From assembly GCA_036833435.1 (NCBI GenBank), contig DAITPV010000002.1, positions 1 to 35,384 on the forward strand: a stretch of DNA of 35,384 nt. Direction: 5' to 3'. The translations under genes were made by a program, and so were the position numbers. Source of the stretch: Actinomycetota bacterium. Its GTDB lineage: Bacteria; Actinomycetota; UBA4738; CALAEC01. Shown here in pieces: positions 19,397-35,314 of this stretch (the stretch's first letter is position 1; each line of letters begins with the position of its first letter). The notes beneath the pieces were generated by a model. It did not search any database. It saw nothing but the letters and a program-made list of their open reading frames with translations, and had not been told where the DNA came from.

Positions 19397-19405
19397 GGTC
19401 GGGGA

Positions 19406-20127: not shown

Positions 20128-20130
20128 CGC

Positions 20131-20930: not shown

Positions 20931-20947
20931 GGTAGTGGGTCAGTTTG
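20931..20947 (+). repeat. IS left terminal inverted repeat
   Basis: GGTAGTGGGTCAGTTTG begins GGnnnTG, like the ends of E. coli IS1 (GGTGATG...). Confidence 0.9.
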
Positions 20948-21022
20948 CCCGCTGAGCTGCCCTCACGCCAGAGCGGTCAAGCAGGGACCGCCTATCTCCT
21001 CTTACCCAAGGGCCTCTGGCGG

Positions 21023-21280
21023 CTAGTCAACGGTGCCGCCCAGGTCCTCGACTATGGCCTTGAACTGAGCGACCAGCGTGTGGAAACGCTCGGGCCTGAT
21101 CCACACGTGAGCTACGCCCTCATGCTGGGGCCCTCCGGGAGCAGGATGTATCGCTTCACGGGCAAACAGGATGGCGATGCCGTCCTTCTGCGCCCGGATG
21201 AAACAGCCTTGGGCGAATGAAGGCTCGGCCATCTCATCGTCGATCTCCACGGGGACGTTCCCGTAGGTCAGGATTGCCAA
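21023..21280 (-). CDS. hypothetical protein (IS passenger, downstream of the transposase)
   Basis: 85-aa ORF. TTG start 24 nt after the transposase stop, preceded by GGGAGGGG, which sits in a CCCCTC/GAGGGG hairpin. Confidence 0.4.
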   Translation of the reverse strand: MAILTYGNVPVEIDDEMAEPSFAQGCFIRAQKDGIAILFAREAIHPAPGGPQHEGVAHVWIRPERFHTLVAQFKAIVEDLGGTVD

Positions 21281-21303
21281 GGTACCCCTCCCTTCAGAGG
21301 GGT

Positions 21304-22143: not shown

Positions 22144-22150
22144 ACTGATC

Positions 22151-22179
22151 ATTATGCCTGACCGGTCAAGCATAGTCAA
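22151..22179 (-). promoter_or_regulatory. candidate transposase promoter (TTGACT, 17-nt spacer, CATAAT)
   Basis: On the minus strand the -35 is at 22179-22174 and the -10 at 22156-22151. The ATG at 22143 lies 7 nt after the -10, implying a leaderless or near-leaderless mRNA. Confidence 0.5.
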
Positions 22180-22210
22180 GGGGGTATCCTCATCGGCCGA
22201 TGGGGAAGCT

Positions 22211-22528
22211 GTGTCGGCCCTAGCCAGCGACCTGTTCGAACCGCCGCTCGATCCCGGTATCGCGGAGGCAGTGATCCTCCTGCGCGAAGCGGGGATCGAG
22301 ACCTTCGAATCCTGCGAGGGAGGGCCAGGGCATTCCTACCCCGAGCCAACTGTCGCCTTCAATGGGGAACCCTCGGCCGGCTTTCAGGCCTATGCGGTGG
22401 CCGTCCAGCACGGTCTCAAAGTGAACACTCTTCGTCGAGTGTGGCGGGTGGACTACGGGGAGCTGACCGGGCCGTGGTGGGAGCTCACGCTGGTCCCACC
22501 ACGCCCAAGCCAGGCCCTACCCTCCTAG
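22211..22528 (+). CDS. hypothetical protein (IS passenger)
   Basis: The long track ORF (antisense to the transposase) was trimmed to GTG 22211, preceded by GGGGAAG. 105 aa with no recognisable domain. Confidence 0.4.
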   Translation: MSALASDLFEPPLDPGIAEAVILLREAGIETFESCEGGPGHSYPEPTVAFNGEPSAGFQAYAVAVQHGLKVNTLRRVWRVDYGELTGPWWELTLVPPRPSQALPS

Positions 22529-22692
22529 GACTGCAGGTCCCTGCAGTCCTTGCAGTGCCTCAGCCCTCCGGTGCCTTCGACACGGTTGTACGACTCGATG
22601 TTGTTGCCAGTCGTGCATTTCGTGTCGTCGTGATAGACACCATCCGGCTTGCCCTCCTCCAGTCTGGAGTGCCATGGGTTCGTTTTGGCCAC
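22525..22692 (-). CDS. small Cys/His-containing protein (55 aa; not in the ORF track)
   Basis: Hand translation gives VAKTNPWHSRLEEGKPDGVYHDDTKCTTGNNIESYNRVEGTGGLRHCKDCRDLQS*. GTG start preceded by GGGGGAGGTGA. It has its own TTGACT-16-TATGCT promoter plus an operator palindrome. Confidence 0.55.
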   Translation of the reverse strand: MAKTNPWHSRLEEGKPDGVYHDDTKCTTGNNIESYNRVEGTGGLRHCKDCRDLQS

Positions 22693-22724
22693 CTGGGATC
22701 ACCTCCCCCGTCCCGGCTGGGAAC

Positions 22725-22738
22725 TTACATCCATGTAA
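22725..22738. promoter_or_regulatory. operator-like palindrome TTACATCCATGTAA
   Basis: Perfect 6-2-6 palindrome 6 nt downstream of the -10 (TATGCT, 22750-22745) of the 55-aa gene. A near-identical copy is at 23004-23017. Confidence 0.55.
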
Positions 22739-22812
22739 TTTCGAAGCATATCAGCCGGGATCAGGGAGTCAAGCACCAGGGCGGGGGGAACGGGAAGGGC
22801 AGATCGGGGGAG

Positions 22813-22980
22813 CTAGGCGGGGGTGACTCTCCGCTCGGATTCGATGTACCGGCGCAGGGCGCTGCGGATGATCCGGGCTATGGGCCGGTCCTCGGCCTCG
22901 GCCTGTTCGTGGAGGGCTTCGCGCAGATCACCGGGCAGCCGCACCACGTACTGGTACTGGGTGACGCGGTCCTTCGCCAT
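22813..22980 (-). CDS. ribbon-helix-helix (CopG/Arc-type) DNA-binding protein
   Basis: Trimmed to the ATG at 22978-22980 (GGGAAGGGAG SD). MAKDRVTQYQYVVRLPGDLREALHEQAEAEDRPIARIIRSALRRYIE shows a beta-strand then helix-helix pattern. Confidence 0.7.
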   Translation of the reverse strand: MAKDRVTQYQYVVRLPGDLREALHEQAEAEDRPIARIIRSALRRYIESERRVTPA

Positions 22981-23003
22981 CCCGACTCCCTTCCCGTGGG
23001 GAA

Positions 23004-23017
23004 TTACGTCCATGTGA
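23004..23017. promoter_or_regulatory. operator-like near-palindrome TTACGTCCATGTGA in the RHH gene promoter
   Basis: Overlaps the last base of the -10 of a TTGACC (23045-23040), 17-nt spacer, CAGAAT (23022-23017) promoter on the minus strand. It matches 12 of 14 positions of the 22725-22738 palindrome. Confidence 0.55.
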
Positions 23018-23056
23018 TTCTGCCGAATACCAAACGATTGGTCAAGCGTGTCCAGG

Positions 23057-23326
23057 CTACCGGCTTCGCTTCCGACCCTCAGGGGAGCGCTTGCCGCGCC
23101 ACCGGGCGATGGCGGCCTTCCTGGCGATCTCCTGGCGCTTCTTGGCGCTCAGCGCCTTGGCCCTGGCCTTGCCCCCCTTGAGGCCACCCTTCCGCCCCAG
23201 CTCGACCGCTGCGGGGTCCTTCGGGGGTGCCTCGGGCTTCGGGGGTGCATCGCCGGTAGCCTCATCGATGAGCTGCTTGGCGAGTTCGTTTACGTCCCTC
23301 GGCCGCTTGCGTGAGCGCTCAGGCAT
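23057..23326 (-). CDS. small basic Lys/Arg/Ala-rich protein (IS passenger)
   Basis: 89-aa ORF. GRKGGLKGGKARAKALSAKKRQEIARKAAIARW is a motif I recall from small MGE-associated proteins of unknown function. Confidence 0.5.
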   Translation of the reverse strand: MPERSRKRPRDVNELAKQLIDEATGDAPPKPEAPPKDPAAVELGRKGGLKGGKARAKALSAKKRQEIARKAAIARWRGKRSPEGRKRSR

Positions 23327-23375
23327 GGCCCAAGGGTCCCACCCGAGCCCCTGAGCGTCAAGGCTGGCTATCCCT

Positions 23376-23392
23376 CAAACTGACCCACTACC
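23376..23392 (+). repeat. IS right terminal inverted repeat
   Basis: CAAACTGACCCACTACC is the exact reverse complement of 20931-20947. It supplies the GSGSV-stop tail to the truncated integrase N-fragment. Confidence 0.9.
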
Positions 23393-23752
23393 CAGCAGTC
23401 CCGCGTAGAAGGCATTCAGCTGAGCGGTGGTCAGCTGCTGGAGCCTGATGCTCCCCAGGCCCGGGATCACGTGGTGCTCGAGGTTCCTCCGATAGGAGTC
23501 CCACGTTGAAAGCCGGACGCGGGCCTTGGCACCCTCGAGCCACTGAAGGAGATACTCCCCGACGGTGAGCCGGGACGGCTCCACATACGTTCCTTGCGCC
23601 AGGCGGCCCTCCTGCTCTGTGAGCCAGTCGCGAGCTTCACGCTTGGTCGCAAAGCCGCCCTTCCAAATCCGCTTCCTGTTCCGGGCCTCATCCCGCCCCA
23701 ACTCGATGATGGCAACCCACCTGCTCCCCCGCCTCCATACACGGCCTCTCAC
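23393..23752 (-). pseudogene. int: tyrosine integrase, N-terminal fragment (arm-binding and start of core-binding domain)
   Basis: GTG start overlaps the repressor stop (GTGA). RGRVWRRGSRWVAIIELGRDEARNRKRIWKGGFATKREA...TVGEYLLQWLE...STWDSYRRNLEHHVIP is a typical phage-integrase N-terminus. The reading frame runs into the IS end and stops at 23375. Confidence 0.9.
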
Positions 23753-24192
23753 GATTCCTCCCCCTTCACCTTGGCAATCTCGATCGACTCCACCCCGACA
23801 TCCAGCCGGCGCACGCCTCTCCCAGGTCCCGGGCTCTCGTCCTCCAGGAGGTGCCCCTGCAAACGCAAGCGGTCACCCGCCTGAAGCCCTCGAGGCTGGC
23901 CCGGCATGAGCAGGTGGATCTTCTCGGGGGGATTGCGAAGGGCTCCCGTTGGTCTCTGGCCTGTGGTCGTCGCGATCAGCTCCGCGTGGGAAACCCCCAG
24001 GGCGTTGGCCAGGCCCGCGAGAGTTTCGGGACGAGGGAACCGGGAGCGGCCCTGCTCGATCTTCCGGATCATGTCGATCGAGAGGCCAGATCTCTCAGCC
24101 AGATCTCGTTGGGTCAATCTGAGCCTCCTGCGGCCCTCAACGCACGCTTCCTTGAGTCTCGAGGCCGAGTCAACCTTCCCGGGCCTGCTCAC
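23749..24192 (-). CDS. XRE-family HTH repressor (cI-like), co-transcribed with int
   Basis: HTH LTQRDLAERSGLSIDMIRKIEQGR. 147 aa. The GTG start sits 6 nt after a -10 hexamer, so it is probably leaderless. Divergent from a cro-like gene. Confidence 0.8.
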   Translation of the reverse strand: MSRPGKVDSASRLKEACVEGRRRLRLTQRDLAERSGLSIDMIRKIEQGRSRFPRPETLAGLANALGVSHAELIATTTGQRPTGALRNPPEKIHLLMPGQPRGLQAGDRLRLQGHLLEDESPGPGRGVRRLDVGVESIEIAKVKGEES

Positions 24193-24198
24193 ACAATC

Positions 24199-24228
24199 AT
24201 ACTAGTCGTACAGTTGTACGACTGTCAA
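24199..24228 (-). promoter_or_regulatory. repressor promoter (TTGACA, 18-nt spacer, TAGTAT) with an 18-bp perfect palindrome filling the spacer
   Basis: On the minus strand the -35 is at 24228-24223 and the -10 at 24204-24199. The palindrome GTCGTACAGTTGTACGAC spans 24205-24222. Confidence 0.6.
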
Positions 24229-24353
24229 GGGATCGGGTTTGCGCAGGTAGGCGGCCTCGCCCGCTCCTGACCAGCCTCGCCTCATTGCTTGTAAGCGGTT
24301 CGCGTGACACGAGCACGAGACTGGGTTGACCGAGAGATTTGGATGGAGGCGAG

Positions 24354-24554
24354 ATGATCCAGCTCAACCAACTTCGCCGGGCCCGGGAGCTCAGCCAGCG
24401 CGACCTTGCCCTACTTGCCGGCGTCTCCCCTGCTCTGATCGCTCTGGTCGAGCAGGGTAAACGGCGCCTGGGAACCCAGGCCCGGAATCGGATTCTGGCG
24501 GCCCTCGAGCTCGGCCAGAACGAGGCTCAGCGGGTCCAGGAGCTCGCCGGATGA
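24354..24554 (+). CDS. XRE-family HTH protein (cro-like)
   Basis: ATG 24354 preceded by GGAGG (the track ORF starts at an upstream TTG). HTH LSQRDLALLAGVSPALIALVEQGKR. Confidence 0.75.
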   Translation: MIQLNQLRRARELSQRDLALLAGVSPALIALVEQGKRRLGTQARNRILAALELGQNEAQRVQELAG

Positions 24555-24811
24555 GGCCCCCGCCCCGCTTGGTCGAGCTGGCTGATCTGCCGGCCACGCT
24601 CTCGGTCGACGAGGCGGCTCGCCTCCTGGGGATCAGCCGAGCCCTTGCCTACGAGCTCGCGAGGCGGGATGAGCTCCCGGGGATGCTCCGCCTCGGAAGA
24701 CGGATCCGGGTGAGCACCGCGGTCGTCCTCAACAAGCTCCAAGCATTTCGTGGCGTGACCGAAGTGGCAGCCTCTAGCCAGGATGCAGATCCGGATGGCG
24801 GTGAGCCGTGA
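24551..24811 (+). CDS. excisionase-family HTH DNA-binding protein
   Basis: ATGA overlap with the cro-like stop. LSVDEAARLLGISRALAYELARRDELPGMLRLGRRIRV. Confidence 0.7.
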   Translation: MRPPPRLVELADLPATLSVDEAARLLGISRALAYELARRDELPGMLRLGRRIRVSTAVVLNKLQAFRGVTEVAASSQDADPDGGEP

Positions 24812-25029
24812 GGTCCAGTCGACCTAGGGTTTCCTCTCCCACGCCTGGTGAGGACGATGTTCACAAGGGCTGCGGCGGCCTGTTCGTCCGCCTGCGAAAG
24901 GGCGGACGCTTCCTCCGCCGATGTGGCCTGTGCGGCGGGGACGAGCCGAGCCCACTGGTTTCGGTCCGGTTGATCAATGGCCGGCGAGAGTGGGTTCCCT
25001 TCCGAGATCTCGTGAGGGGCCGGCCGTGA
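24808..25029 (+). CDS. small Cys-containing (zinc-ribbon-like) protein
   Basis: GTGA overlap with the upstream stop. CGG...CGLCGG motif. Confidence 0.45.
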   Translation: MRSSRPRVSSPTPGEDDVHKGCGGLFVRLRKGGRFLRRCGLCGGDEPSPLVSVRLINGRREWVPFRDLVRGRP

Positions 25030-25220
25030 ACCACGATGCCGGCGAGGAGCCTGTCGTGACGAGCCTTGGAGAGAGCGAATGTCCTCGGTGTGAGGAACGC
25101 CTTCGAGCCGTGGTGGTCCTTCCCGAACTGGTCGACCCACTGATGGCCGAGCTCTTCAGGAGCCTCGTCGGTGTGATCGAGGCCAGCGGAATCTTCCTCA
25201 CGGAGACCGGAGCGAGCTAG
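25026..25220 (+). CDS. small hypothetical protein (CPRC motif)
   Basis: GTG 25026 overlaps the upstream stop (GTGA). It ends 2 nt before the helicase GTG. Confidence 0.4.
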   Translation: MNHDAGEEPVVTSLGESECPRCEERLRAVVVLPELVDPLMAELFRSLVGVIEASGIFLTETGAS

Positions 25221-25222
25221 CC

Positions 25223-26623
25223 GTGCAGTTGTCGGACGAGCTGGCCGACCGAGTTCCTCCGGGTCAAGAGTCCCACCTGACGGACCTGGGCAATGCGCAT
25301 CGCCTGGTCAGGCGTCACGGCGGAGAGCTCCGGTACTGCCGGCCGTGGCGGGCGTGGTTCGTCTGGGATGGCCGGCGATGGGCCAGGGACGTCAAGGGTC
25401 AGGTCTTCCAGCTCGCGAAGGCAACGGTCCGTGGGCTGTACGAGGAGGCCGCGCAGGAGCGGGACTCCGCTCGACGGAAGGCCCTGGCGACCCACGCCAC
25501 ACGTTCTGAGAGCGAGCCACGGATCCGAAGCATGGTGGTACTGGCGGAGACCGAGCCGGAGATCGCTGTCAGGCCCGACGAACTCGATTCGGACCCCTGG
25601 GCCCTCAACGTGCTGAACGGCACGATCGACCTCGCGACCGGCACCCTGCGTCCGCACGACCCAGGCAACCTCATCACCCGGCTCGCCCCCGTTGAGTACG
25701 AAGCCGCCGAAGCTTGCCCCCTGTGGACGGCTTTTCTCCAGCGGGTACTGCCGGACGAACCACTCCGAGCGTTCATGCAGCGAGCGGTCGGGTACTCGAT
25801 CACCGGGGACACGCGAGAGGAGGTGCTGTTCTTCCCCCACGGCCCAACAGCTGCCGGGAAATCCACCTTCATCGAAGCCGTCAAGGCGACGCTCGGCGAG
25901 TACGCGATGACAGCCGACTTCTCCACGTTCCTTCGGAGCCGACGGGACGGCGGATCCCCCAGGAGTGACATCGCCCGGCTGTCCGGTGCTCGGTTCGTGG
26001 CCTCGGTGGAGGTGGATGAGGGCAAGCGCCTGGCTGAGGGCCTGGTAAAGCTGATCACCGGCGGGGACACCGTGACGGCTCGCGCTCTCTACCGGGAGGA
26101 GTTCGAGTTCGTCCCGCACTTCAAGCTGTGGCTCGCCGCGAATAGCCGACCAAGGGTGCGCGACGACGACGATGCGCTCTGGCGACGGATCCTCCAGGTG
26201 CCCTTCACCGAGCAGATCCCCGAGGAGGACCGGGATCCGGACGTGAAGGCGGCCCTCCGCGACCCCCAGGAGTCGGGTCCCGGGATCCTCGCCTGGGCAG
26301 TGGCGGGGTGTCTCCGGTGGCAGGAGGAGGGACTGGCTCCGCCGCCCGCGGTCCGTCAAGCGACCAGGGAGTACCGCGAAGAGATGGACCCCCTTCGGGA
26401 CTTCATCGCCGAACGGTGCCACCTGGCGCAAGAGGCCTCCGCCAGCAGTGAGGACCTGTGGCACGCCTACCTGGAATGGGTGAAAGCGACGCGGTCCTCA
26501 GAAGCTCTGGGGCGCCGAGCGTTCAGCAACCGGCTCGGAGATCACGGCTTCAGGTCGGAGAGGCTGCCGAACGGCAGGAACAAGTGGGGGGGCATCGGCC
26601 TGGTGCAGGGAGAGCTGAAGTGA
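25223..26623 (+). CDS. phage/plasmid primase P4-family C-terminal region protein (D5_N plus SF3 helicase/NTPase)
   Basis: 466-aa ORF. LTDLGNAHRLV...W..WDGRRW (D5 N-terminal type), Walker A GPTAAGKST, Walker B-like FVASVEVDEG, and a C-terminal winged-helix-like tail. No obvious TOPRIM or AEP primase domain. Confidence 0.8.
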   Translation: MQLSDELADRVPPGQESHLTDLGNAHRLVRRHGGELRYCRPWRAWFVWDGRRWARDVKGQVFQLAKATVRGLYEEAAQERDSARRKALATHATRSESEPRIRSMVVLAETEPEIAVRPDELDSDPWALNVLNGTIDLATGTLRPHDPGNLITRLAPVEYEAAEACPLWTAFLQRVLPDEPLRAFMQRAVGYSITGDTREEVLFFPHGPTAAGKSTFIEAVKATLGEYAMTADFSTFLRSRRDGGSPRSDIARLSGARFVASVEVDEGKRLAEGLVKLITGGDTVTARALYREEFEFVPHFKLWLAANSRPRVRDDDDALWRRILQVPFTEQIPEEDRDPDVKAALRDPQESGPGILAWAVAGCLRWQEEGLAPPPAVRQATREYREEMDPLRDFIAERCHLAQEASASSEDLWHAYLEWVKATRSSEALGRRAFSNRLGDHGFRSERLPNGRNKWGGIGLVQGELK

Positions 26624-26790
26624 CCGAAGTAGTTGGACCCCATTTCCCGAACTCTCCTCGCGTGCGCGCGTATGGGAAAGTCCCGCATTTCGCCCCCCAC
26701 TGCTTCGGCTGCTTCAGTCCCTTCACTGCCGGCGGCCGCCGGGGGCCCTCCTTGCCACCTCTCGGCGTTCGCGGCGGCCGTAGCGGCGGC

Positions 26791-26808
26791 GTTGCAAGTG
26801 GGTTGCAG
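26791..26808 (-). repeat. inverted-orientation pair of the TGCAAC(C/G)C motif, 11-bp phasing, upstream of TerS
   Basis: The plus strand reads GTTGCAagtggGTTGCAg. The reverse complement gives TGCAACCC and TGCAACGC with the same 11-bp spacing as the att-proximal pairs. Confidence 0.4.
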
Positions 26809-26867
26809 CCATCACGCCTAGCCGGGCTGACCAGCACCGACGCGAGAGCATTGGGAGTCCCACTCCC

Positions 26868-27413
26868 ATGACGAAGGCTCTCCCGCCCGAATCGTCCGAT
26901 CCGGCCCCGCGGACCTGTGCCCGCTGTGGTCGGAGCGAACCGGATCTCGCCGTCGGCCAATGCCCGAGCTGCAAGGGGTTCCTCCCCGGCAACCAAGAGG
27001 GCCGCACGTTCGAACAGGGCAACGACGCGTCCCTGGTGCATGGCGCGAAGGCCGGCGCCGACCTGGTCCAAGCCACCGAGTCAGCTCTGGTCGAGATCGA
27101 GGCAGCGGTCGGTGACGGCCCCGGATCCGAGCCGAGGTTCGCACTCGCCCGGGCTTCGGCTGCTCGGGCCCTGGCCCGCGTCAGGCTGCTCGAGGAGTAC
27201 CTGGATCGGGTGGGGATCCTCGACTCGAAGGGCCGGCCACGTCCCTCCACCAAACTCCTGGAGCAAGCCCACGCGGGGTTCCTGAAGCACCTTGAGGCCT
27301 TCGGGATGACACCGGCTTCGGCTGCCCGGCTCGGCCTGGATCTCACACGAGCGAAGAGTGCCAGCATCGCGGTCCAACTCGCAGACGCTCGTCGGTCGGC
27401 GTCCAAGCCGTAG
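26868..27413 (+). CDS. terminase small subunit (P27-family-like) with N-terminal zinc ribbon
   Basis: CARCG...CPSCKG ribbon. The C-terminal ...DSKGRPRPSTKLLEQAHAGFLKHLEAFGMTPASAARLGL resembles the P27-type TerS signature (G..TP.SR.RL). Confidence 0.55.
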   Translation: MTKALPPESSDPAPRTCARCGRSEPDLAVGQCPSCKGFLPGNQEGRTFEQGNDASLVHGAKAGADLVQATESALVEIEAAVGDGPGSEPRFALARASAARALARVRLLEEYLDRVGILDSKGRPRPSTKLLEQAHAGFLKHLEAFGMTPASAARLGLDLTRAKSASIAVQLADARRSASKP

Positions 27414-27415
27414 GC

Positions 27416-27583
27416 TCAGCCCTCGCCGAGCGCCTTCCTGACGAGGGTGTCGATTGATCGGTTCAGACTCTCGATCTCCCCGTGAAGGCCCCGGATAGCG
27501 TCTTCCAACGCCTCGACCCTCATCCCGAGGCCCTTCATCACCGCGCGCAGGTGTTGTGCTTCCTCGTCCGTCAGTTCAGCCAC
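27416..27583 (-). CDS. small coiled-coil protein (55 aa; not in the ORF track)
   Basis: Hand translation gives VAELTDEEAQHLRAVMKGLGMRVEALEDAIRGLHGEIESLNRSIDTLVRKALGEG*. GTG start preceded by GAGGAGGGAG, 15 nt after the lipoprotein stop. Confidence 0.45.
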   Translation of the reverse strand: MAELTDEEAQHLRAVMKGLGMRVEALEDAIRGLHGEIESLNRSIDTLVRKALGEG

Positions 27584-27598
27584 CGGCTCTCTCCCTCC

Positions 27599-28108
27599 TC
27601 ATCCCAGCTGTGAAAGTCCCTGTCGAGCGTCCCGCAGCTCCCGGGTAGCCAGCCTCCAGAAGGCCTGCAGATCCGACTCGTTCTCATCGAGGCTACAGCC
27701 GAGCTGGCCGATGCAATCGTTCCAGTCGTTGAAGGCATCGACGTAGTGGTTCAACGCGTTCTCCAGGTGGACGGCCACATCCAATGTGCACAGGCTCTCC
27801 AGGCGACCGAACGCGATCGCGTCGTAGGCGACCCGGGCATCCCCGACCTTCGTCCCGTACTCCTGGAATGTCAGGCCGACCCCCAGCCGGGAATCGAGCT
27901 CGTCGAGGGCGCCGATCAGATCCCCCAGCTGCTCCTCGCATTCCTGCCGGGTCGCTTCAGCCTCTTCCTGCGCGCCGGGCTGGGCGCTCTCGCTCGGTGT
28001 TGGGGTGGCCGCCTGGTTCGGCGAACCACTGGCCGCGCAGCCGGTAACAGTCAAGGCCGTCAGGACCAGGAGCTTGGGGAGCCTCTTCGGGCGTTGAGGC
28101 TGGATCAC
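27599..28108 (-). CDS. lipoprotein, helical, four additional Cys, function unknown
   Basis: 169-aa ORF; GTG start preceded by AAGGAAG. Lipobox LTVTGC followed by a low-complexity linker. Confidence 0.65.
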   Translation of the reverse strand: MIQPQRPKRLPKLLVLTALTVTGCAASGSPNQAATPTPSESAQPGAQEEAEATRQECEEQLGDLIGALDELDSRLGVGLTFQEYGTKVGDARVAYDAIAFGRLESLCTLDVAVHLENALNHYVDAFNDWNDCIGQLGCSLDENESDLQAFWRLATRELRDARQGLSQLG

Positions 28109-28162
28109 GGGCTTCCTTGGAGCCTACCCGGAGCTCGCCCCGGGTGCGACTTCCCCATGGGG

Positions 28163-28615
28163 CTACATCACCCGCTCAAGCTCCAGCTCGATCCCTCTCA
28201 ACTGCCGGGCAGCCTCTCCCGCTAGGCGGGCCAGCTCAGCTGGGTCGCTCGTCTGAGCCACCCGCTGGAGGAACCCCCTTGCGTAGAGGCGTCTCATCCT
28301 CCGGCGGATCCGTCTTAGCGGCAGGCGGCGGTGGAGCTTCCGGTCCCAGACCTTCCTGAGCCGAGCCAGCCAGTTGCTCAATCCCTTGCCTCGCTCCGGC
28401 ACAGACTCGCGGCCCTGCTCCTGGTGGTCCCGGATGTAATCCGCTCTGTCACGAACCGTGCGGACCTCATCGAAGAGCTCTGCTGCGGCCTGACGAAGTC
28501 GATCATGACGCGCTCGGCCGGTCGGCGAGGAACGGATCATGTTGACCGTCGAGAGAACGGCCCCGTACAGAGCCACGAAGCCGATCAGCAACTGCAGCAG
28601 CAAGTCAGCATCCAT
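28163..28615 (-). CDS. single-pass membrane protein with basic helical cytoplasmic domain, function unknown
   Basis: 150-aa ORF with an N-terminal TM helix (LLLQLLIGFVALYGAVLSTV) followed by an Arg-rich helical region. It is the first gene of the minus-strand cassette. Confidence 0.6.
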   Translation of the reverse strand: MDADLLLQLLIGFVALYGAVLSTVNMIRSSPTGRARHDRLRQAAAELFDEVRTVRDRADYIRDHQEQGRESVPERGKGLSNWLARLRKVWDRKLHRRLPLRRIRRRMRRLYARGFLQRVAQTSDPAELARLAGEAARQLRGIELELERVM

Positions 28616-28644
28616 CGGCTCCGAGGATAGGGGAGCTCGAAGAC

Positions 28645-28875
28645 ATGCCGGGGCCGTTTGACACGGCCAGGACAGTTTTCAGTGTGGCGAGCCAGGGTTC
28701 TCGATACCTCAGTCCTCTCGAGGTGGCGCAACACCTGGGGGTCCAGGTCGAGACCGTCCGGGACTGGATCCGCCGGGGCGAGCTCCGCGCGGTTCGACTC
28801 GGCCGGCTCCTGCGAGTCCGACGGGAGGACCTGGAGGCATGGCTTTCGCAGCGTGTCGTTGGGAGCGCCACGTGA
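28645..28875 (+). CDS. excisionase-family HTH DNA-binding protein (third copy in the element)
   Basis: LSPLEVAQHLGVQVETVRDWIRRGELRAVRLGRLLRVRREDLEAWL is close to the 19193-19396 product (RLGQLVRFRREDIEAFV). AGGGGAG SD. Confidence 0.7.
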   Translation: MPGPFDTARTVFSVASQGSRYLSPLEVAQHLGVQVETVRDWIRRGELRAVRLGRLLRVRREDLEAWLSQRVVGSAT

Positions 28876-28975
28876 ACAGCTGTCGCTGTCTCATCCGAAC
28901 GGACCGCGCCCAGCTCTCGCCCGAGTGGGTCGGGGCTCCCGGGTCAGGTCTCAGGCGAATGGGTGGTGCCAGCGC

Positions 28976-29965
28976 ATGAGCACCCTGGACGAAGCGATCG
29001 AGACGCTGAAACGTGCGGGGACGGCTGGGCCCCGGGCCTCAGGCCCGGTCTCCCCGCTCCGCAAGGAGTTCTCGGCCGTCGATGTTCGGGTGGTCGACTC
29101 GAAGCAGCGACGCCTGGGGATCGTCATCTCAACCGAGGCCGAGGATCGGGACGGCGACATCATCGAAGTGGCGGGCTGGGATCTGACGAACTACCGGAGG
29201 AACCCGGTCGTTCTCTTCGCTCACGACTACCGATCCCCCGCCGTCGGCAAGGCCATCTCGGTGGTGAAGGACACCGTCGGGCAGGCGCTGCGCTCCGTCG
29301 TGGAGTTCGCTCCCACGGAGATGGGCCGGCAACTGTTCGAGCTCTACGCCGGAAAGTACATGCGGGCCTGGTCCGTGGGTTTCCTCCCGAAGGAGTCCGT
29401 CCGCCGCCGCGAAACGGAAGACGGCTACACGGGTCGTGGCGTGCGCTTCAGGCGCCAGGAGCTCCTGGAGTACTCGGCCGTGCCGGTGCCGGCCAATGCC
29501 GAAGCCCTGACCGATGCAGTGACCCGAATGGCGCGCGGAGCGTCCGCGCTCCAACCCACCGGCTCAGCCGAGGATCCCGACGACGCTGTTGCTCGACTCG
29601 TCTACGCCGCTGAGCGGCGGGTCATTCACCGGTGGCCCCTGGGTCGGAGTGTTCCCCGGCTGGAGGCCAGCGACCTGGTCGCAAGGGCTTGCCGAATCGT
29701 TGGGCTGGCGCCGATCAGGATCGTTCAGGGACACCGCGACGGGCGAGCCAAACGGGTTCGAGGTCGCCCGCTCATCTTCCTGAGCGAACGGGGGCTCCGG
29801 CCGCTGTACATCCTCCATGAGGTTGCTCATCACGCCGCCGGCCTCGAGCACGGTCACGATGCTGACTTCCGCCGCCGCTATAAGCACCTCGTGTCTCGGT
29901 TGCTGGGCCACCCGGAGGCCCGGGCGCTGGCCCAAGCATTCCGGGAGAAAGGGTTAGACGACTGA
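28976..29965 (+). CDS. HK97-family prohead (capsid maturation) protease fused to a C-terminal HExxH zincin-like region
   Basis: Track ORF trimmed to ATG 28976. ISTEAEDRDGDIIEVAGWDLTNYRRNPVVLFAHDYRSPAVGK...AWSVGF...EYSAVPVPAN is a classic S78/HK97 protease core. The C-terminal ~130 aa contain LYILHEVAHHAAGLEHGHDADF. Confidence 0.8.
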   Translation: MSTLDEAIETLKRAGTAGPRASGPVSPLRKEFSAVDVRVVDSKQRRLGIVISTEAEDRDGDIIEVAGWDLTNYRRNPVVLFAHDYRSPAVGKAISVVKDTVGQALRSVVEFAPTEMGRQLFELYAGKYMRAWSVGFLPKESVRRRETEDGYTGRGVRFRRQELLEYSAVPVPANAEALTDAVTRMARGASALQPTGSAEDPDDAVARLVYAAERRVIHRWPLGRSVPRLEASDLVARACRIVGLAPIRIVQGHRDGRAKRVRGRPLIFLSERGLRPLYILHEVAHHAAGLEHGHDADFRRRYKHLVSRLLGHPEARALAQAFREKGLDD

Positions 29966-30615
29966 TGAGTGGAGACGATCGATTCACTGATGCCGCCGGA
30001 CGCCTGAAGCAACTCCGCTCCGAGATCGCCGCTCTGAGCGACGGCGTGAAAGCCACGCAGCGGGCCGTCTCTGACGCCATCGCGAATGGCGAGGAGGCGA
30101 GGCGGATCCTCGGAGCAGCAAGAGCCAGGGTGGCGGAGGCGGAGCAGGAGCTCGCCCAGGCCACCGCCGCGAGGTATCAGGCTGAGGCCGCCTCGGGACC
30201 TCGAACCGATCCCGCAGCGGCAAAGCAAGAGACCACCGCCCGGGAAGCGCTTCATCGGGCTCGCCAGGAGCTGAGGACCGCGGAGCTTGGCTCCGAGGAG
30301 GCCGATCGTGTTCGCGAGCTGCTGCGCGAGCATCTGAACGAGGTCGAGCAGGAGGCCCGGTCCCAGAAATCCGGAGCCAAGTCGAAGGCGGCGTCCGAGA
30401 TCCTGGCGCACGTCAAGGCCTCCTGGGCTGACGTCCGCCTTCTGCTCGCCGAGCTGTCCGCCATCGGGGCAATCCCCGAGGGGGACAACCCCGTGGCGAC
30501 GAACGTGGCCGACGATGCCGCCGCCGCCTTCGAGCAGCGGATGGGCTGGGCTGGCTCCGTCAGCGAAGGCCGGGCGCTCGAGCGGGAGCGAGCCTCGATC
30601 CTTGGTGGGCGCTGA
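29965..30615 (+). CDS. Ala/Glu/Arg-rich coiled-coil protein (possible scaffold-like protein)
   Basis: ATG overlaps the protease stop (TGATG). 216 aa, mostly predicted helical. The scaffold assignment rests only on its position after the protease. Confidence 0.5.
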   Translation: MSGDDRFTDAAGRLKQLRSEIAALSDGVKATQRAVSDAIANGEEARRILGAARARVAEAEQELAQATAARYQAEAASGPRTDPAAAKQETTAREALHRARQELRTAELGSEEADRVRELLREHLNEVEQEARSQKSGAKSKAASEILAHVKASWADVRLLLAELSAIGAIPEGDNPVATNVADDAAAAFEQRMGWAGSVSEGRALERERASILGGR

Positions 30616-30628
30616 GGGTGGGGGGGTC

Positions 30629-31978
30629 GTGACGGCCGGCATGATCACAACCCCGGCACCGGCTGGCCTGGGGTATGCGTCCGATCCCCCCACCCTGATC
30701 GCCGACCTCCTCCATCTCCCGGATGGCCAGCACTTCGGCGAGGCGATGGCCCCGTTCCAGCGAGAAGACTTCGCCGCCCACTTCGGCGCGGCCGCTCCGC
30801 CAAACACGTGGATCTCCCGACCGAGAGGTGGATCCAAGACCACGGACACAGCAGCGATCGCCATCACGGATCTGCTCCTGGCTCCCGACCGGAGCCGCCT
30901 ATACGCCGTCGCGGCCGACCAAGAGCAGGCAGGGCTGATCCGAGAGGCAATCATGTCCTGGGTCGCGTCGTCCCCCGCCCTTGAGGACGTCTTCGACATT
31001 CAGGCGAACCTCATCGCCAACCCGACGACGGGGACGGTGCTGCGCATCATGGCTTCTGACGCCCCCTCGGCGCTTGGCCTTCTTCCCTACAGGCTGTACC
31101 TCGACGAGCTCACTGCGTGGCCAAGCCGGGCCATGTGGGACGCGGTGATCTCCGCCGCGCACAAGGTTCCTGGTGCGCGGGTGCTCGTCATCTCGACCGC
31201 CGGATCCCCGGCGCACTGGTCCTACTCACTGTGGCAGCACGTGGTCGAGTCCCCCACCTGGCAGGTGAGAGAGTCCCAGGAGCTCGCTCCCTGGGTATCC
31301 GGGGAGCAGGTCGAGGACCAGCGAGCCCACCTGCCGTCAGGAATCATCGCGCGCTGGCTGGAAAACCGGTGGGCGTCGGCAGATGAAGCCCTGCTCTCAC
31401 TCGAGGACATCGTTGCTTGCACGGACCACGACCGGGAGCCGTCGGTCGCCGGCGACGGAGCGGGCCCGTACAGGATCGGCGTCGACTTCGGCTGGAAGCA
31501 CGACCTGACCGGCGTTGCGGTCGTACGTGGTGGCCGGCGGAGCCGGGTCCACCGACTCGAGTACCTGTGGACCCGCCAGGGCTCGCGGGAGGCCCCGGTG
31601 CAGGTGGCTGAAGTGGAGGATAAGATCCAAAGCCTTCAGCGCCGATTCCGACCAGCTCGCGTCATCGTGGATCCGACCCAGCTCGTTGGAACGGCCCAGC
31701 GACTACCGAGGGTCGAGGAGTTCCCGTTCACCGCCCAGAGCGTCGGGAAGCTCTCCACGGTGCTGCTGTCACTCATCCGGGAGCGGCGGCTGCGTCTTCT
31801 CCCCGACGAGGAGCTTCGCACAGAGCTCCTCTCCCTGGTCGTCAGGGAGAGCACATACGGCTGGAGGATGGAGGCTGCCCCCGGGGCTCACGACGACCGC
31901 GCGATGGCCCTGGCGCTCGCGGCCTTCGCTGCGGAGGAGGCTCCGAAGAGTCCCCAGATAGGGATCTGGAAGCTGTGA
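30629..31978 (+). CDS. terminase large subunit
   Basis: Walker A-like RPRGGSKT, Walker B LYLDELTAW, coupling motif ISTAG, nuclease motifs GVDFGWKHDLTGVAVV and GAHDDRAMALALA. GTG 30629 follows GAGGGTGGGGGG; ATG 30641 is an alternative start. Confidence 0.85.
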   Translation: MTAGMITTPAPAGLGYASDPPTLIADLLHLPDGQHFGEAMAPFQREDFAAHFGAAAPPNTWISRPRGGSKTTDTAAIAITDLLLAPDRSRLYAVAADQEQAGLIREAIMSWVASSPALEDVFDIQANLIANPTTGTVLRIMASDAPSALGLLPYRLYLDELTAWPSRAMWDAVISAAHKVPGARVLVISTAGSPAHWSYSLWQHVVESPTWQVRESQELAPWVSGEQVEDQRAHLPSGIIARWLENRWASADEALLSLEDIVACTDHDREPSVAGDGAGPYRIGVDFGWKHDLTGVAVVRGGRRSRVHRLEYLWTRQGSREAPVQVAEVEDKIQSLQRRFRPARVIVDPTQLVGTAQRLPRVEEFPFTAQSVGKLSTVLLSLIRERRLRLLPDEELRTELLSLVVRESTYGWRMEAAPGAHDDRAMALALAAFAAEEAPKSPQIGIWKL

Positions 31979-32211
31979 GCAATTCCCCTCGGAACGAAAC
32001 CGATCTCGAGCGCACCAGGCTCGCTCTCGATCGAGCCACTCGGGATTTGGCCACCGACCGGCAACGGCTCTTCGAGCTCGGCAACAAGCGTGATCCCGAG
32101 TCCCTTCAGCTGGCCTCCGTGCTTAAGCAAGTAGTCCAGGACCGGACCTGGATCGTCCAGGTGCTGAAAACCGAGGAGTCCAGGTTGGCCGAACGCGTGA
32201 GGACAGGATAG
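31975..32211 (+). CDS. small helical hypothetical protein
   Basis: GTGA overlap with the TerL stop. 78 aa. Confidence 0.45.
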   Translation: MSNSPRNETDLERTRLALDRATRDLATDRQRLFELGNKRDPESLQLASVLKQVVQDRTWIVQVLKTEESRLAERVRTG

Positions 32212-32215
32212 CCCA

Positions 32216-32527
32216 ATGCCGGTAGGCCGCGTCCGAGAAGGGAACACCGATCCGGGTGACCTCGCGTACATTCGAGTGGAACTGGCAGCTACGTGTCCCT
32301 GGCCGCGTTGCTGGGAGCGCGCAGCTGGTCAGGATCCGGCACCAGCGCTGTGCTGGTGGCACCTCCTCGAGGTTCGGCCGGCCGAGCAATGCGCGTGGCC
32401 GGGGTGTGCTTCTGCTCCGATCGGCCTCTTCTGCTACCCCCACGACAAGCTCGTCTGTGGGCTGATCGATCCGGCCGGTCACGATCCGCTCCGCCTGCGT
32501 GTACTGGCGAGCCTTCCGATCGGATGA
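32216..32527 (+). CDS. Cys/His/Trp-rich small protein (putative zinc-binding)
   Basis: 103 aa with repeated C-W-P-x-C-like units (CPWPRCW, CWWH, CAWPGC, CYPH). Confidence 0.45.
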   Translation: MPVGRVREGNTDPGDLAYIRVELAATCPWPRCWERAAGQDPAPALCWWHLLEVRPAEQCAWPGCASAPIGLFCYPHDKLVCGLIDPAGHDPLRLRVLASLPIG

Positions 32528-32673
32528 CCAATGACGCCGCGACCACCGTTCGATGCCCCGAATGCGGGGCCACCCGCGATGTCCTCGTCAACCTGGCGGT
32601 GCACTGCGAAGCAGACGGAACGCTCATGGAGCCCACCGAGCAGGGTTGGGGGTGGTCGGATGCGCCGCTGTAA
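32524..32673 (+). CDS. small zinc-ribbon-like protein (49 aa)
   Basis: ATGA overlap with the upstream stop. CPECG...HC. Confidence 0.35.
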   Translation: MTNDAATTVRCPECGATRDVLVNLAVHCEADGTLMEPTEQGWGWSDAPL

Positions 32674-32784
32674 GCCTCCCTGTGCCGCTCGAACCTCTGT
32701 TCGGGTCCCCTGGTCCACAGAACCCCCCCACCGCAGCCGTAGCTCCGACCCTGCAGCAAAGAACGCTATCCCAGGGGCTGCCCG

Positions 32785-35133
32785 GTGCCGCTGAGCGGAG
32801 GGATCGCGGCGGCGGTGGGGGGAGCCGCCGGCGGCGACATCCTGATCCGTCTGCTCCTGGACGGGAAGCAGTACCAAGCCGGCCTGGCGGCAGCTCGCGC
32901 CCAGGCCCAGGGGTTCTCCAGCCGGATGATCTCGGCCGGCCGGACCATGCAGTCGGTCGGTTCCACCATGACCCGCCGGTTCACCCTTCCGCTCGTCCTG
33001 GCCGGCGGGGCGGCCGTGAAGCTCGCCGTCGACTTCAACGAGTCGATGACCCACATCAAGGCCCTGGTCGGGGCGAGCGACGCCCAGATCTCCAGGTACC
33101 ACGACACGATCCTCGACATGGCGGGGGCCGTGGGGAAGTCCCCGCAGGAGCTTGCCGAGGCCCTGTACTTCGTCACCTCGGCGGGGTTCTCAGGGGCCAA
33201 GGCTCTCGACGTACTGGACGCGTCCGCCAGAGCTTCGGCGGCCGGCCTCGGCGAGACCATGACGGTGGCCGATGCGGTCACCTCCGCCGTGAACGCCTAT
33301 GGCGAGAAGGTGCTGTCGGCGGAGCAGGCCACCGACATCCTTCTAGCCACCGTCCGGGAGGGCAAGGCCGAGCCTGAGGAGCTGGCCGGCTCCATCGGCC
33401 GCGTGATCCCGGTCGCCTCCGACCTGGGGGTGTCCTTCGACGAGGTCGGAGCTGCCCTCGCCGGCATGACGCTGTCGGGGTTCAACGCCGCGGAGGCAGC
33501 CACCAACCTGGGCGGGATCTTCTCCTCGCTCCTGAAGCCGACCACCAAGGGTGACGAAGTGCTGAAGTCTCTCGGCCTGACCCTCGACGACGTCCGGGCG
33601 ATGGTCGAGGACGAGGGCCTGTTCCCCGCGTTGATGATGCTGCGCGAGGAGCTGGGCAACGACAAGGAGGCCATGGCCTCCTTGTTCCCGAATGTGCGGG
33701 CGCTGCGAGGTTTCCTGAACCTGACCGGGGCATCGGCGGAGAAGAACGCCGGCGTGTTCCGCGATCTCAGCGGAGCGGTCGGCGACACCGACAAGGCGTT
33801 CCAGGACATCCAGGAGGATCCGGCTCACAAGTTCCGGGAGGCCTGGTCCGACGTGCAGGCCACCATGATCGAGGCGGGCGAGAAGATCCTGCCCGTCGTC
33901 ACGAAGATCATCGAGGAGGTCGGTGGCATCGTGGGCGCCTTCGGGAATCTAGACGAGGGCACCCAGGAGTTCATCATCTGGGCTGGAGCCATCACCGCGG
34001 CAGCGGGGCCCGCCGTAAATCTGCTCGGGAACCTCCTTAGGATTGGCGGCCGCCTCGGCCGGATGAAGTTCCCGATCCCTGGTGGCACAGGCGGAGCCGG
34101 TGGGGGTGTCGGCGCCATTCCCTTCCTTGCAACCGGCCCGGGGGGACTCGCGATAGCCACCACGCTGACTGCGGTCACGGCAGGCATCTACAACATCGGC
34201 CAGGCCGCTCAAGACAAGACGCAGTTCATCAACGCGATGTCTCAAGCTCTCCTCGCGGGACACATGAACACAAGACAGCTCCGCGAGGAGCTCATGAGGA
34301 TGCGAATGACGGAGGGCCCGATCCGTGGGCTGTACGACCAGGTCGCCCTGATGGACAACATCGTGGCTCAAGCGAACGTCTCCATCCTCGATCAGTCCCG
34401 CAACCTGCGCCGGCTGGGGATCGAGCTCACCGATGCTGAGCTGGCCGCCTACCAGAACTACGTCGTCCAGGGCGACCTGTACGGCCAGATGGTCGTTCTG
34501 AACGGCGCACTTCAGCGAGGACTCGGCCCCCTCAACAACCTCGTTGGTTCGCATCGCTCCGCCGCCGCGGCAGCAGCCGACCACGCCCAGAAGGTTCAGG
34601 GCCTCGGTGCGGCCATGCGGAACGTCCCCGACGCGAGCCCGAAGATCAACTTCCCCAGCATCGACGACGACCTCGCCAAGCTTGGGCGCCTCCGTGGGGA
34701 GCTCAACACCCTCGACGGCCAGAAGGCCACGATCACCGTCCACACCAACTACACCCGCTCCGGCACTCCGCCCGGAGGTATCCCCGGTGGCACACCCGGC
34801 GGGGCGGGAGGCCACCAGGCCCAACACGGGTGGCACGGCTGGGTGCACGGCCCGACGTGGTTCCTCACTGGTGAGGGTGGCCAGTCGGAGCGGGTGGACA
34901 TCTCGCCGAAGAACAGCGTGCACGGCCCGGTCGCGGGCGGGAAAGGAGCCGCGGCCGCGGCGCTGTCCCCTCTCAGGTTCTCTGGAACCCTGACCGGCAA
35001 GCTGAGCACGCCCCTCGGCCTGGCCGACTTTGAGGGGATGGCGGAGCTGGCTGCCGAGGCCGTGGGCGCGGACGTCCTTAGCGCAGCGTCCAGCATGGTG
35101 GAGCAACAAGTCTGGGCTGGGATGCGGCGATGA
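32785..35133 (+). CDS. phage tail tape measure protein (TP901-family core region)
   Basis: 782-aa ORF. The N-terminal third (MTHIKALVGASDAQ...ILDMAGAVGKSPQELAEALYFVTSAGF...ATDILLATVREGKAEPEELAGSIGRV) matches the TMP core. Central Gly-rich hydrophobic segment and helical remainder. Confidence 0.8.
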   Translation: MPLSGGIAAAVGGAAGGDILIRLLLDGKQYQAGLAAARAQAQGFSSRMISAGRTMQSVGSTMTRRFTLPLVLAGGAAVKLAVDFNESMTHIKALVGASDAQISRYHDTILDMAGAVGKSPQELAEALYFVTSAGFSGAKALDVLDASARASAAGLGETMTVADAVTSAVNAYGEKVLSAEQATDILLATVREGKAEPEELAGSIGRVIPVASDLGVSFDEVGAALAGMTLSGFNAAEAATNLGGIFSSLLKPTTKGDEVLKSLGLTLDDVRAMVEDEGLFPALMMLREELGNDKEAMASLFPNVRALRGFLNLTGASAEKNAGVFRDLSGAVGDTDKAFQDIQEDPAHKFREAWSDVQATMIEAGEKILPVVTKIIEEVGGIVGAFGNLDEGTQEFIIWAGAITAAAGPAVNLLGNLLRIGGRLGRMKFPIPGGTGGAGGGVGAIPFLATGPGGLAIATTLTAVTAGIYNIGQAAQDKTQFINAMSQALLAGHMNTRQLREELMRMRMTEGPIRGLYDQVALMDNIVAQANVSILDQSRNLRRLGIELTDAELAAYQNYVVQGDLYGQMVVLNGALQRGLGPLNNLVGSHRSAAAAAADHAQKVQGLGAAMRNVPDASPKINFPSIDDDLAKLGRLRGELNTLDGQKATITVHTNYTRSGTPPGGIPGGTPGGAGGHQAQHGWHGWVHGPTWFLTGEGGQSERVDISPKNSVHGPVAGGKGAAAAALSPLRFSGTLTGKLSTPLGLADFEGMAELAAEAVGADVLSAASSMVEQQVWAGMRR

Positions 35134-35134
35134 G

Positions 35135-35153
35135 TGCAACCCTCCTGCAACCC
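35135..35153 (+). repeat. pair of direct TGCAACCC repeats, 11-bp phasing (candidate arm-type sites, attR side)
   Basis: TGCAACCCtccTGCAACCC starts 2 nt after the TMP stop. The second copy pairs with CGGGTTGT (35165-35172) to form a hairpin. Confidence 0.55.
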
Positions 35154-35266
35154 GGACAGACGAACGGGTTGTCACGAGCCAGCACGAGACCGGGGGCCGT
35201 AACTCCAGACCCTCTGGTCGGGGTAACGCAGGAACACTGGATGGACGGAGTTACACGGACGGTCCA

Positions 35267-35314
35267 GGCCTCTTAAGCCCAAGGTTGCAGGTTCGAGTCC
35301 TGCGCGGCCCACGA
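35267..35314 (+). repeat. attR core: second copy of the 48-bp repeat (partial tRNA-Lys 3' end)
   Basis: Identical to 18139-18186. No tRNA 5' half lies upstream of it. Confidence 0.9.

Follow-up and report, generated by a model that had tools for sequence, protein, structure and literature searches.

Phage satellites described so far hijack helper packaging either through a small terminase subunit (TerS) or TerS-binding factor alone or through a whole capsid module with portal and capsid genes. Here, we analyzed a 35,384-nucleotide stretch of an Actinomycetota genome (GenBank assembly GCA_036833435.1, contig DAITPV010000002.1, positions 1 to 35,384; hereafter, the window), which contains an island integrated at a tRNA-Lys gene. 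The island encodes both TerS and the large terminase subunit (TerL), without a recognizable portal or capsid gene. We estimate a probability of roughly 60% that it belongs to a family, apparently undescribed, of small islands that integrate at tRNA genes, resemble satellites, and package themselves into helper capsids with their own terminase. The family core consists of a tyrosine integrase, an HTH_17 excisionase (Xis)/AlpA-like protein, a replication protein, a TerS-like protein, and TerL.

Comparison with described satellites

Phage-inducible chromosomal islands (PICIs), such as the SaPIs, resemble the island in their length of ~10–15 kb, terminal integrase, divergent repressor/cro-like regulators, AlpA/HTH_17 protein, primase-replicase, and accessory defense cargo, as well as in TerS, which PICIs use to redirect packaging; the PICI virion depends on a helper. 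Unlike PICIs, which use the helper TerL and carry no other structural or packaging genes, the island has its own two-domain TerL, an S78 prohead protease, and a tape measure protein (TMP). In the SatelliteFinder scheme, terL marks the capsid-forming PICIs (cf-PICIs), which also have capsid, portal, and connector genes, whereas classical PICIs have terS only (PMC10085698). The cf-PICIs share TerS, TerL, and a prohead protease with the island, and TerL and protease always occur there alongside capsid and portal. The Streptomyces satellites MulchRoom, MiniFlayer, and Ando have their own TerS and TerL as well, and likewise encode portal and capsid (PMC10690885, PMC13587820). Both groups take helper tails and, unlike the island and its approximately 25 relatives, in which none of these genes was found, always carry a major capsid protein (MCP), a portal, and head–tail adaptors or connectors. 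Satellite P4 is similar in its tRNA integration, tyrosine integrase, and D5_N/P4-type primase-helicase, and depends fully on its helper for structural genes. However, P4 lacks the terminase, protease, and TMP that the island carries, and no other P4 core gene was present among the Pfam and PHROG matches of the island, including sid, psu, delta, and epsilon.

Two further groups of satellites encode a TMP. The PLE satellites of Vibrio cholerae have been shown experimentally to build chimeric tails in which their own TMP, tail assembly chaperone (TAC), and baseplate hub replace those of ICP1 (PMC12987554; Nature 2026). The authors of that study also point to predicted tmp genes in other satellites, including some cf-PICIs with a putative tmp (PMC12987554, Extended Data Fig. 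10). Like the island, PLEs have a TMP and no capsid genes of their own; their tails draw on the helper tube, sheath, and baseplate. PLEs also encode a TAC and baseplate hub. They differ from the island in lacking TerL and in parasitizing a lytic myovirus, and there is no relationship in sequence or host. A preprint describes EPIP satellites in Mycolicibacterium that encode a TMP and show altered tails (PMC12822802). By description, those of Mycolicibacterium aichiense are actinobacterial satellites of ~11 kb with TerS and TMP and without tail and lysis genes, as in the island; they differ in having a serine integrase, a head–tail adaptor and stopper, and scaffolding and capsid-related genes, with TerL and protease not reported. 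The island integrase is of the tyrosine type, and no adaptor, stopper, or MCP was found in the island, so that only TerS and TMP are shared.

Among actinobacterial elements, phiRv1 and phiRv2 are small prophage-like islands that combine an integrase and HTH_17-type Xis with a D5/P4-type primase, a terminase subunit, and a prohead protease, and they lack a TMP. Compared by description, they share these genes with the island and differ by their major capsid gene and lack of a TMP. Mycobacterial PICI-like elements, including phiRv1 and phiRv2, have been defined by integrase and capsid (PMC10654092). The original prediction was aware of no described satellite with its own packaging enzyme, maturation protease, and tape measure. 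As the PLEs (PMC12987554) and EPIPs (PMC12822802) demonstrate, a satellite-encoded TMP is already known, but we found no description in the literature of a satellite with TerS and TerL and without portal or capsid, which is the apparently undescribed part of the combination.

A terminase pair without recognizable portal, capsid, or tail-tube genes

The two packaging genes belong to the family core.

26868-27413, + strand: TerS-like protein with an N-terminal zinc ribbon and a Terminase_4-like C-terminal half
30629-31978, + strand: TerL with ATPase and nuclease domains

The TerS-like protein matches Terminase_4 at E=1e-3, which is weaker than Pfam's cut-off. Within its cluster, 17 of the 49 members match Terminase_4 and five match Terminase_6, and in 56 related loci the gene immediately precedes TerL. 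Its putative assignment as TerS is therefore supported at the level of the family, the single-sequence match being weak. Across 23 relatives of TerL, no variation is seen in Walker A, Walker B, or three nuclease aspartates, and the family profile matches solved TerL structures in both the ATPase (6z6d) and nuclease (5tge, 5m1f) domains. Judged by these residues, it is plausible that the TerS–TerL pair is catalytically competent. The two genes are separated in the window by a 3.2-kb block comprising two minus-strand open reading frames (ORFs), an HTH_17 gene, the protease, and a 216-aa ORF, whereas TerS abuts TerL in the relatives.

Portal, capsid, tail tube, and lysis genes had been reported as missing from the late region, and this held under each approach applied. 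An intact temperate siphophage carries a portal, an MCP, a tail tube, distal tail genes, and lysis genes; none of these was found in the island with Pfam or PHROGs. The 216-aa ORF and a 135-aa extension of the protease are the largest products without assignment, and in no unassigned ORF is there room for a portal or an HK97-fold capsid protein. The phages nearest to the window TMP and protease are L012, L013, and L094 (L numbers denote the retrieved loci). When their structural proteins, including portal, MCP, tail tube, and TAC, were compared with the window by tblastn, only noise was obtained, with no pseudogene remnants. No Cpm/Ppi-type gene was recognized in the island. The unassigned ORFs on either side of TerL are the following.

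29965-30615, + strand: 216-aa all-helical protein with a long helical hairpin (AlphaFold2 model)
31975-32211, + strand: 78-aa ORF
32216-32527, + strand: 103-aa Cys/His-rich ORF
32524-32673, + strand: 49-aa ORF with a weak zinc-ribbon-like signal

The three small ORFs gave no Pfam or PHROG match to a head–tail adaptor or connector; folds too distant for sequence profiles may be present in them. Nor did these ORFs upstream of the TMP match a TAC or hub in the same databases, and the TAC of the nearest phage gave only noise. The original prediction had named the 216-aa coiled-coil ORF, together with the small ORFs, as a place where portal or capsid homology might be concealed. The AlphaFold2 model of the 216-aa protein reaches a pLDDT of 97 in the hairpin core, and Foldseek searches against BFVD returned generic helical matches only. 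As the protein is predicted to be helical throughout, an HK97-fold capsid, portal, or tube is ruled out. The model is at best scaffold-like, and a scaffolding function would be a guess.

The reduced layout recurs in related islands

Relatives of TerL were collected by a word-indexed search of 5.8 billion proteins, which yielded 26, and an exhaustive search, which yielded 388 representative clusters at E<=1e-30. A further 80 related loci came from a metagenome scan, and their genes were identified with a caller based on the GC content of third codon positions (GC3) and then clustered. A profile search of genome contigs with a 7-sequence TerL alignment gave only three loci, two of them short. 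The contexts of six TerL homologs already revealed small islands in which an integrase, helix-turn-helix (HTH) regulators, and a replicase are followed by TerS–TerL, with no portal after TerL. Overall, approximately 25 related loci are ordered integrase, another gene, HTH_17, replicase, TerS, TerL, and a portal or capsid gene was never recognized beside TerL; TerS–TerL is the last or near-last module. Gene families in the related loci include the integrase (25), the D5_N helicase (16), and an AAA_25 primase (11), and all-against-all comparison gave a conserved core of integrase, HTH_17, TerS, and TerL. The family was found in high-GC, Actinomycetota-like contigs, its TerLs are 32–55% identical, and the islands occupy different tRNA targets.

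Neighboring proteins were also screened for head genes. In a Pfam scan of 122 neighboring proteins of at least 170 aa, Phage_portal occurred in two phage-type controls only, and no capsid family had two or more matches among the best 25 of 81 families. PHROGs applied to 30 further unknown ORFs of related islands detected no portal, capsid, or tail gene other than proteases, TMP-like proteins, and a single head protein on the short contig L055.

Twelve islands are bounded by attachment (att) repeats, which are direct repeats of 20–59 nt located mostly at tRNA genes (Lys, Leu, Ala, Pro, and Tyr). Their sizes are 8.9, 10.9, 13.3, 13.3, 13.7, 13.8, 13.8, 13.9, 14.4, 14.7, 16.0, and 17.1 kb, the last being the window island, which measures 14.66 kb without its insertion sequence (IS). 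With the window counted in this way, nine of the 12 lie between 13.3 and 14.7 kb (window, L001, L017, L025, L033, L044, L049, L050, and L060). This narrow range suggests a packaging-size constraint; 13.3–14.7 kb would correspond to about one third of a 40–45-kb siphophage genome. A 7,573-bp contig (P0016, JGI 3300056388) carries TerL followed by a reverse-strand integrase, regulators, and a replicase up to the contig end, and could represent an excised island of ~7.5 kb whose assembly is circularly permuted.

The island TerLs stand apart from those of sequenced phages. Against 50,697 sequenced phages, the best match of the window TerL is 32% identical over 35% of the query, and no close relative was found. 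Approximately 12 more distant loci, in which TerL is ~32–33% identical and several of which have lower GC, are true phages with a portal immediately after TerL, fused in some cases to NUDIX and Mu-F domains. In a neighbor-joining tree of TerL, the true-phage loci form one clade, and the window groups with islands L001, L014, and L004.

These data bear on the explanation that the island is a defective prophage, in which a once-complete siphophage lost its portal, capsid, head–tail, tail, and lysis genes through internal deletions and the IS represents further decay. The IS-split integrase is what such decay would produce, the protease and TMP have close counterparts in complete phages, and a protease without its cognate capsid gene, in a gene order broken by minus-strand ORFs, has the appearance of debris. 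Nevertheless, the same reduced layout is found in approximately 25 divergent islands at differing tRNA targets, 12 of them with intact att repeats, indicating that the gene set of the island is not a one-off deletion. The terminal or near-terminal position of TerS–TerL in the relatives, without a portal, and the clustering of island sizes fit poorly with a remnant. The tblastn comparison shows no remnants of portal, MCP, tube, or TAC, the late-region ORFs are all intact with coding-type GC3, and the island TerL clade is missing from sequenced phages. We therefore regard a prophage remnant as unlikely. The original prediction had made conservation of the reduced gene set a test of satellite status; TerS–TerL without portal or capsid is indeed shared, but by tblastn, the protease and TMP proved to be accessory rather than part of the family core.

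Accessory assembly genes

The genes between and after the terminase subunits that could alter helper assembly are the protease and TMP, in addition to the 216-aa ORF.

28976-29965, + strand: HK97-type (S78) prohead serine protease, 329 aa; protease domain at ~aa 1-195, fused to a 135-aa C-terminal region
32785-35133, + strand: TMP, 782 aa (PhageMin_Tail 5.5e-30; phrog_1533 1e-72)

In the protease, the catalytic His83 and Ser133 are invariant in 34 homologs. The N-terminal domain is confidently modeled, with the T4 gp21 prohead protease as the best solved structural match; on this basis, the protease is plausibly active. Its C-terminal extension of 135 aa (window 29558-29962) contains an HExxH-like motif, HEVAHH (LHEVAHHAAGLEHGHD), and is missing from the 119 other best-scoring homologs listed. 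It occupies the position at which related phage proteases are fused to, or precede, the capsid protein. No Pfam, PDB, or PADLOC match was obtained for these 135 aa, and model confidence is low there. A zinc-metallopeptidase domain was considered because of HEVAHH and could not be supported. A minus-strand ORF at 29564-29935, suggested by the GC3 pattern in place of the extension, was rejected, as high GC at first codon positions in an Arg/Ala/Gly-rich frame explains the pattern; the database's own gene call at this locus is the 329-aa protein.

The TMP combines an N-terminal half of the TP901 family with a unique C-terminal half, in which a hydrophobic region and the motif PTWFLTGEGGQSER are found. 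As a rule of thumb, a tail measures ~0.15 nm per TMP residue, and 782 residues would specify a tail of roughly 115–120 nm.

The late-region gene list of the original prediction stood for every gene it named, as confirmed by Pfam and PHROGs, but it left out three genes located between TerS and the protease, namely two minus-strand ORFs and a further HTH_17 gene.

27599-28108, - strand: 169-aa ORF with a lipoprotein-like N-terminus (LTVTGC); cargo, intact, without a family match in Pfam, PHROGs, or PADLOC
28163-28615, - strand: 150-aa ORF with a hydrophobic N-terminal segment; cargo, intact, without a family match
28645-28875, + strand: second HTH_17 (MerR/excisionase-like) small protein (PF12728 8e-16), heading the accessory block

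As a guess, the minus-strand ORFs could be cargo expressed in lysogeny, for instance for superinfection exclusion.

When the window protease, TMP, and 216-, 78-, 103-, and 49-aa ORFs were searched by tblastn against all retrieved loci, matches were obtained only in the phages L012, L013, and L094. The nearest relatives of the protease and TMP are 47–52% identical over the conserved domains and lie inside complete siphophage modules, which points to a capture of both genes from helper-like phages, as judged by sequence similarity. L012 and L013 carry TerL, portal, protease, capsid, TAC, TMP, and distal tail genes, and L094 carries portal and protease followed by a 470-aa capsid protein. Downstream of the best full-length TMP relative (P0066) lie HTH genes on the reverse strand, along with host genes, rather than distal tail genes.

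Genes of the same types have been gained separately elsewhere in the family, where prohead protease and TMP-like genes recur as accessories. Prohead-protease-like genes (clusters c9 and c60 and a 267-aa ORF of L044) are present in at least 10 islands, and TMP-like genes in four: the window, L001 (PhageMin_Tail, 862 aa), L017, and L044. L044, an att-bounded island of 14.7 kb, contains an integrase, HTH_17, D5_N, TerS, TerL, a 276-aa ORF, a protease, a 228-aa ORF, a 68-aa ORF, and a TMP-like gene; it is the same functional set as in the window, built independently. In the 16-kb related island L092, the position of the TMP as the last large gene is occupied by an 887-aa Glucosaminidase and NlpC/P60 peptidoglycan-hydrolase protein (L092:10994-13657).

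At least 10 related islands carry a conserved protein of ~331 aa (cluster c6), whose gene closely precedes TerS or TerL and often follows directly on a prohead-protease-like gene. The protein has four invariant CxxC pairs forming two zinc ribbons and no database match (alignment A3). Examples are as follows.

L020:4830-5825: c6 protein
L008:5958-6899: c6 protein
L015:9030-10004: c6 protein
L033:9006-9986: c6 protein

We considered c6 as a hidden capsid protein, but the four invariant CxxC pairs argue for a zinc-ribbon protein instead.

Island ends and left arm

The island of 17,128 bp spans window 18139-35314 between two copies of an exact 48-nt direct repeat.

18139-18186, + strand: attL core, first copy of the repeat, the 3' end of tRNA-Lys(CTT) (gene 18110-18184)
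35267-35314, + strand: attR core, second copy of the repeat
18256-18273, + strand: phased repeat GCAACCC-N4-GCAACCC, 70 nt inside attL; candidate arm-type integrase/Xis binding site
35136-35153, + strand: phased repeat GCAACCC-N4-GCAACCC, 114 nt inside attR
26789-26806, - strand: third motif copy with one mismatch, GCAACCC-N4-GCAACGC, intergenic between the helicase and TerS genes, upstream of TerS

The phased motif was matched three times, compared with a mean of 0.02 in shuffled sequence. Because of the 48-nt repeat at a tRNA gene and the phased motifs by both ends, the ends look like real recombination sites, in agreement with the original prediction that they are authentic; the TMP stop (35133) lies 134 nt from attR, and the window ends 70 nt beyond attR. 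The third motif copy could be a regulatory or integrase/Xis-binding site, or part of an origin or packaging-site (pac) region. GC content across the window is 62–75%, and five tRNA genes are present. The tRNA-His and tRNA-Lys genes (18030-18184) are 5 nt apart, the island occupying the second gene of the pair, and tRNA-Pro, tRNA-Gly, and tRNA-Arg are clustered at 3707-4973.

The left arm contains the following features.

18303-19211, + strand: AbiTii abortive-infection protein, defense cargo (Pfam PF18864 4e-39; PADLOC AbiTii 4e-37)
20131-20814, - strand: tyrosine integrase, C-terminal catalytic fragment (PF00589 2e-20), 51% identical to the L001 integrase
20931-23392, - strand: IS of 2,462 bp between the integrase halves, with an IS1-like DDE transposase (21304-22179) and several small ORFs
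23375-23752, - strand: tyrosine integrase, N-terminal fragment with arm-binding and SAM-like domains (PF14657, PF14659)
23749-24192, - strand: XRE-family repressor-like HTH protein (HTH_31/HTH_3)
24339-24554, + strand: Cro-like small HTH protein, resembling L001 HTH proteins and divergent from the repressor
24551-24811, + strand: HTH_17 excisionase/AlpA-like protein, family core (PF12728 1e-10), with homologs in L001, L003, and others
25223-26623, + strand: D5_N/DUF5906/Pox_D5 P4-type primase-helicase for replication, with the same cluster in 16 related loci

Pfam bears out the PICI/P4-like left arm that had been predicted, comprising integrase, repressor, cro, xis, and P4-type helicase. An XRE repressor, Cro-like protein, HTH_17 protein, and D5_N/DUF5906/Pox_D5 helicase make up the regulation and replication genes of a PICI, and att repeats at tRNA-Lys accompany the tyrosine integrase, as in an integrative element. 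While the integrase itself had been correctly recognized, its interruption by the 2,462-bp IS was overlooked. The IS has perfect terminal inverted repeats of 17 bp (GGTAGTGGGTCAGTTTG) and an 8-bp target duplication (CAGCAGTC) at 20923-20930 and 23393-23400. In-silico excision of the IS and one duplication copy restores a single continuous integrase ORF of ~385 aa and leaves an island of 14,658 bp. The insertion looks recent. With its integrase split, excision by this copy alone is improbable, and the copy is probably unable to excise without help and not autonomously mobile now.

Cargo and possible mobility without phage particles

Defense cargo appears common across the family. AbiTii is found in two unrelated family islands at differing positions, at the left end in the window and as a 299-aa ORF downstream of TerL in L019/L020, and L033 carries a 951-aa MmeI-type restriction-modification gene. 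Such cargo raises the possibility of a defense or interference island, in which TerS/TerL, the protease, and the TMP would serve as decoys that sabotage infecting phages at the stages of packaging, capsid maturation, and tail assembly, with AbiTii adding abortive infection. Besides AbiTii and the restriction-modification systems of other islands, this explanation can draw on tail-assembly interference being a known defense strategy, as in the Tai systems (PMC11364771) and Rta of PLE11 (PMC12987554), and on a scan of the viral contigs in IMG/VR, in which two TerL peptide patterns turned up no relative. However, TerL (ATPase and nuclease) and the protease have kept their catalytic residues, which a decoy would not need, and the integrase, Xis, replicase, att architecture, and narrow size range indicate a mobile, probably packaged element. 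Interference and satellite transfer are also compatible and may coexist. As a full account of the island, decoy-based defense is quite unlikely.

The actinomycete integrative and conjugative elements (AICEs) are alike in size, tRNA integration, and int-xis-rep layout. By analogy with them, the island could be a non-viral element whose terminase-like ATPase-nuclease moves DNA without capsids, with TMP-like or peptidoglycan-hydrolase proteins serving for envelope crossing. The Glucosaminidase and NlpC/P60 protein at the distal end of L092 and the lack of virome matches would suit such an element. The AICE hallmark, a FtsK/SpoIIIE-type Tra translocase, is nonetheless missing: neither it nor any other conjugation gene was found in the ORFs of the island or among the 122 related-island proteins (best 25 of 81 families). 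Furthermore, there is no sensible use for TerS–TerL pairs, prohead proteases, and TP901-type TMP domains apart from capsids and tails, and TerL groups with the TerLs of true portal-bearing phages. Transfer without phage particles is thus highly improbable.

Proposed mechanism

For a satellite that packages itself with its own terminase, the following course of events may be envisaged. Growth of a helper siphophage in the cell would lead to excision of the island via integrase and Xis and to its replication with its own D5_N/P4-type helicase. The TerS–TerL holoenzyme would recognize a packaging site on the island and pump island DNA into procapsids assembled from helper capsid and portal proteins, with the helper also providing the tail tube, baseplate, and lysis. 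The S78 protease and the possibly scaffold-like 216-aa protein may alter the maturation or size of the helper capsid, and the island TMP, by analogy, could enter helper-built tails to yield chimeric tails of satellite-set length. In this fuller form, a new Actinomycetota satellite family would possess a full terminase without portal or capsid, dock it on the helper portal, and have captured a protease, a scaffold-like protein, and a tape measure, repeatedly and on independent occasions, to reprogram the assembly of helper capsids and tails; these phage-derived factors are enzymes and rulers, and no structural building block would be encoded. We advance this form tentatively, at slightly below even odds.

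Several points weigh against a self-packaging satellite, and we infer satellite status with these in mind. No helper phage was identified, and two TerL peptide patterns retrieved no relative from IMG/VR. The TerL of such a satellite has to engage a portal that is not its own, a demanding task for which no precedent was found. The inactivation of the integrase by the IS is expected of a decaying element too. By tblastn against all retrieved loci, none of the other islands contained a detectable homolog of the window protease, TMP, 216-aa ORF, or small ORFs; the protease, 216-aa ORF, and TMP are accessory for this reason, and their function here is without conservation support. Gene calls in the related loci come from a simple in-house caller. 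Single weak capsid matches are possible beyond the best 25 of the 81 Pfam families, so that the exclusion of capsid genes is not absolute, and the short relative contig L055 carries a major-head-protein gene.

Implications for Actinomycetota satellites

If the proposed self-packaging is correct, a full terminase without a docking partner would constitute a third packaging strategy among satellites and would raise the question of how TerL recognizes a foreign portal. The repeated gain of protease and TMP genes would extend the tail-remodeling finding in PLEs to another phylum and to capsid maturation. In Actinomycetota, current satellite detectors rely on capsid genes; the distinct TerS–TerL clade, together with a size of ~14 kb, offers markers for satellites in this phylum.

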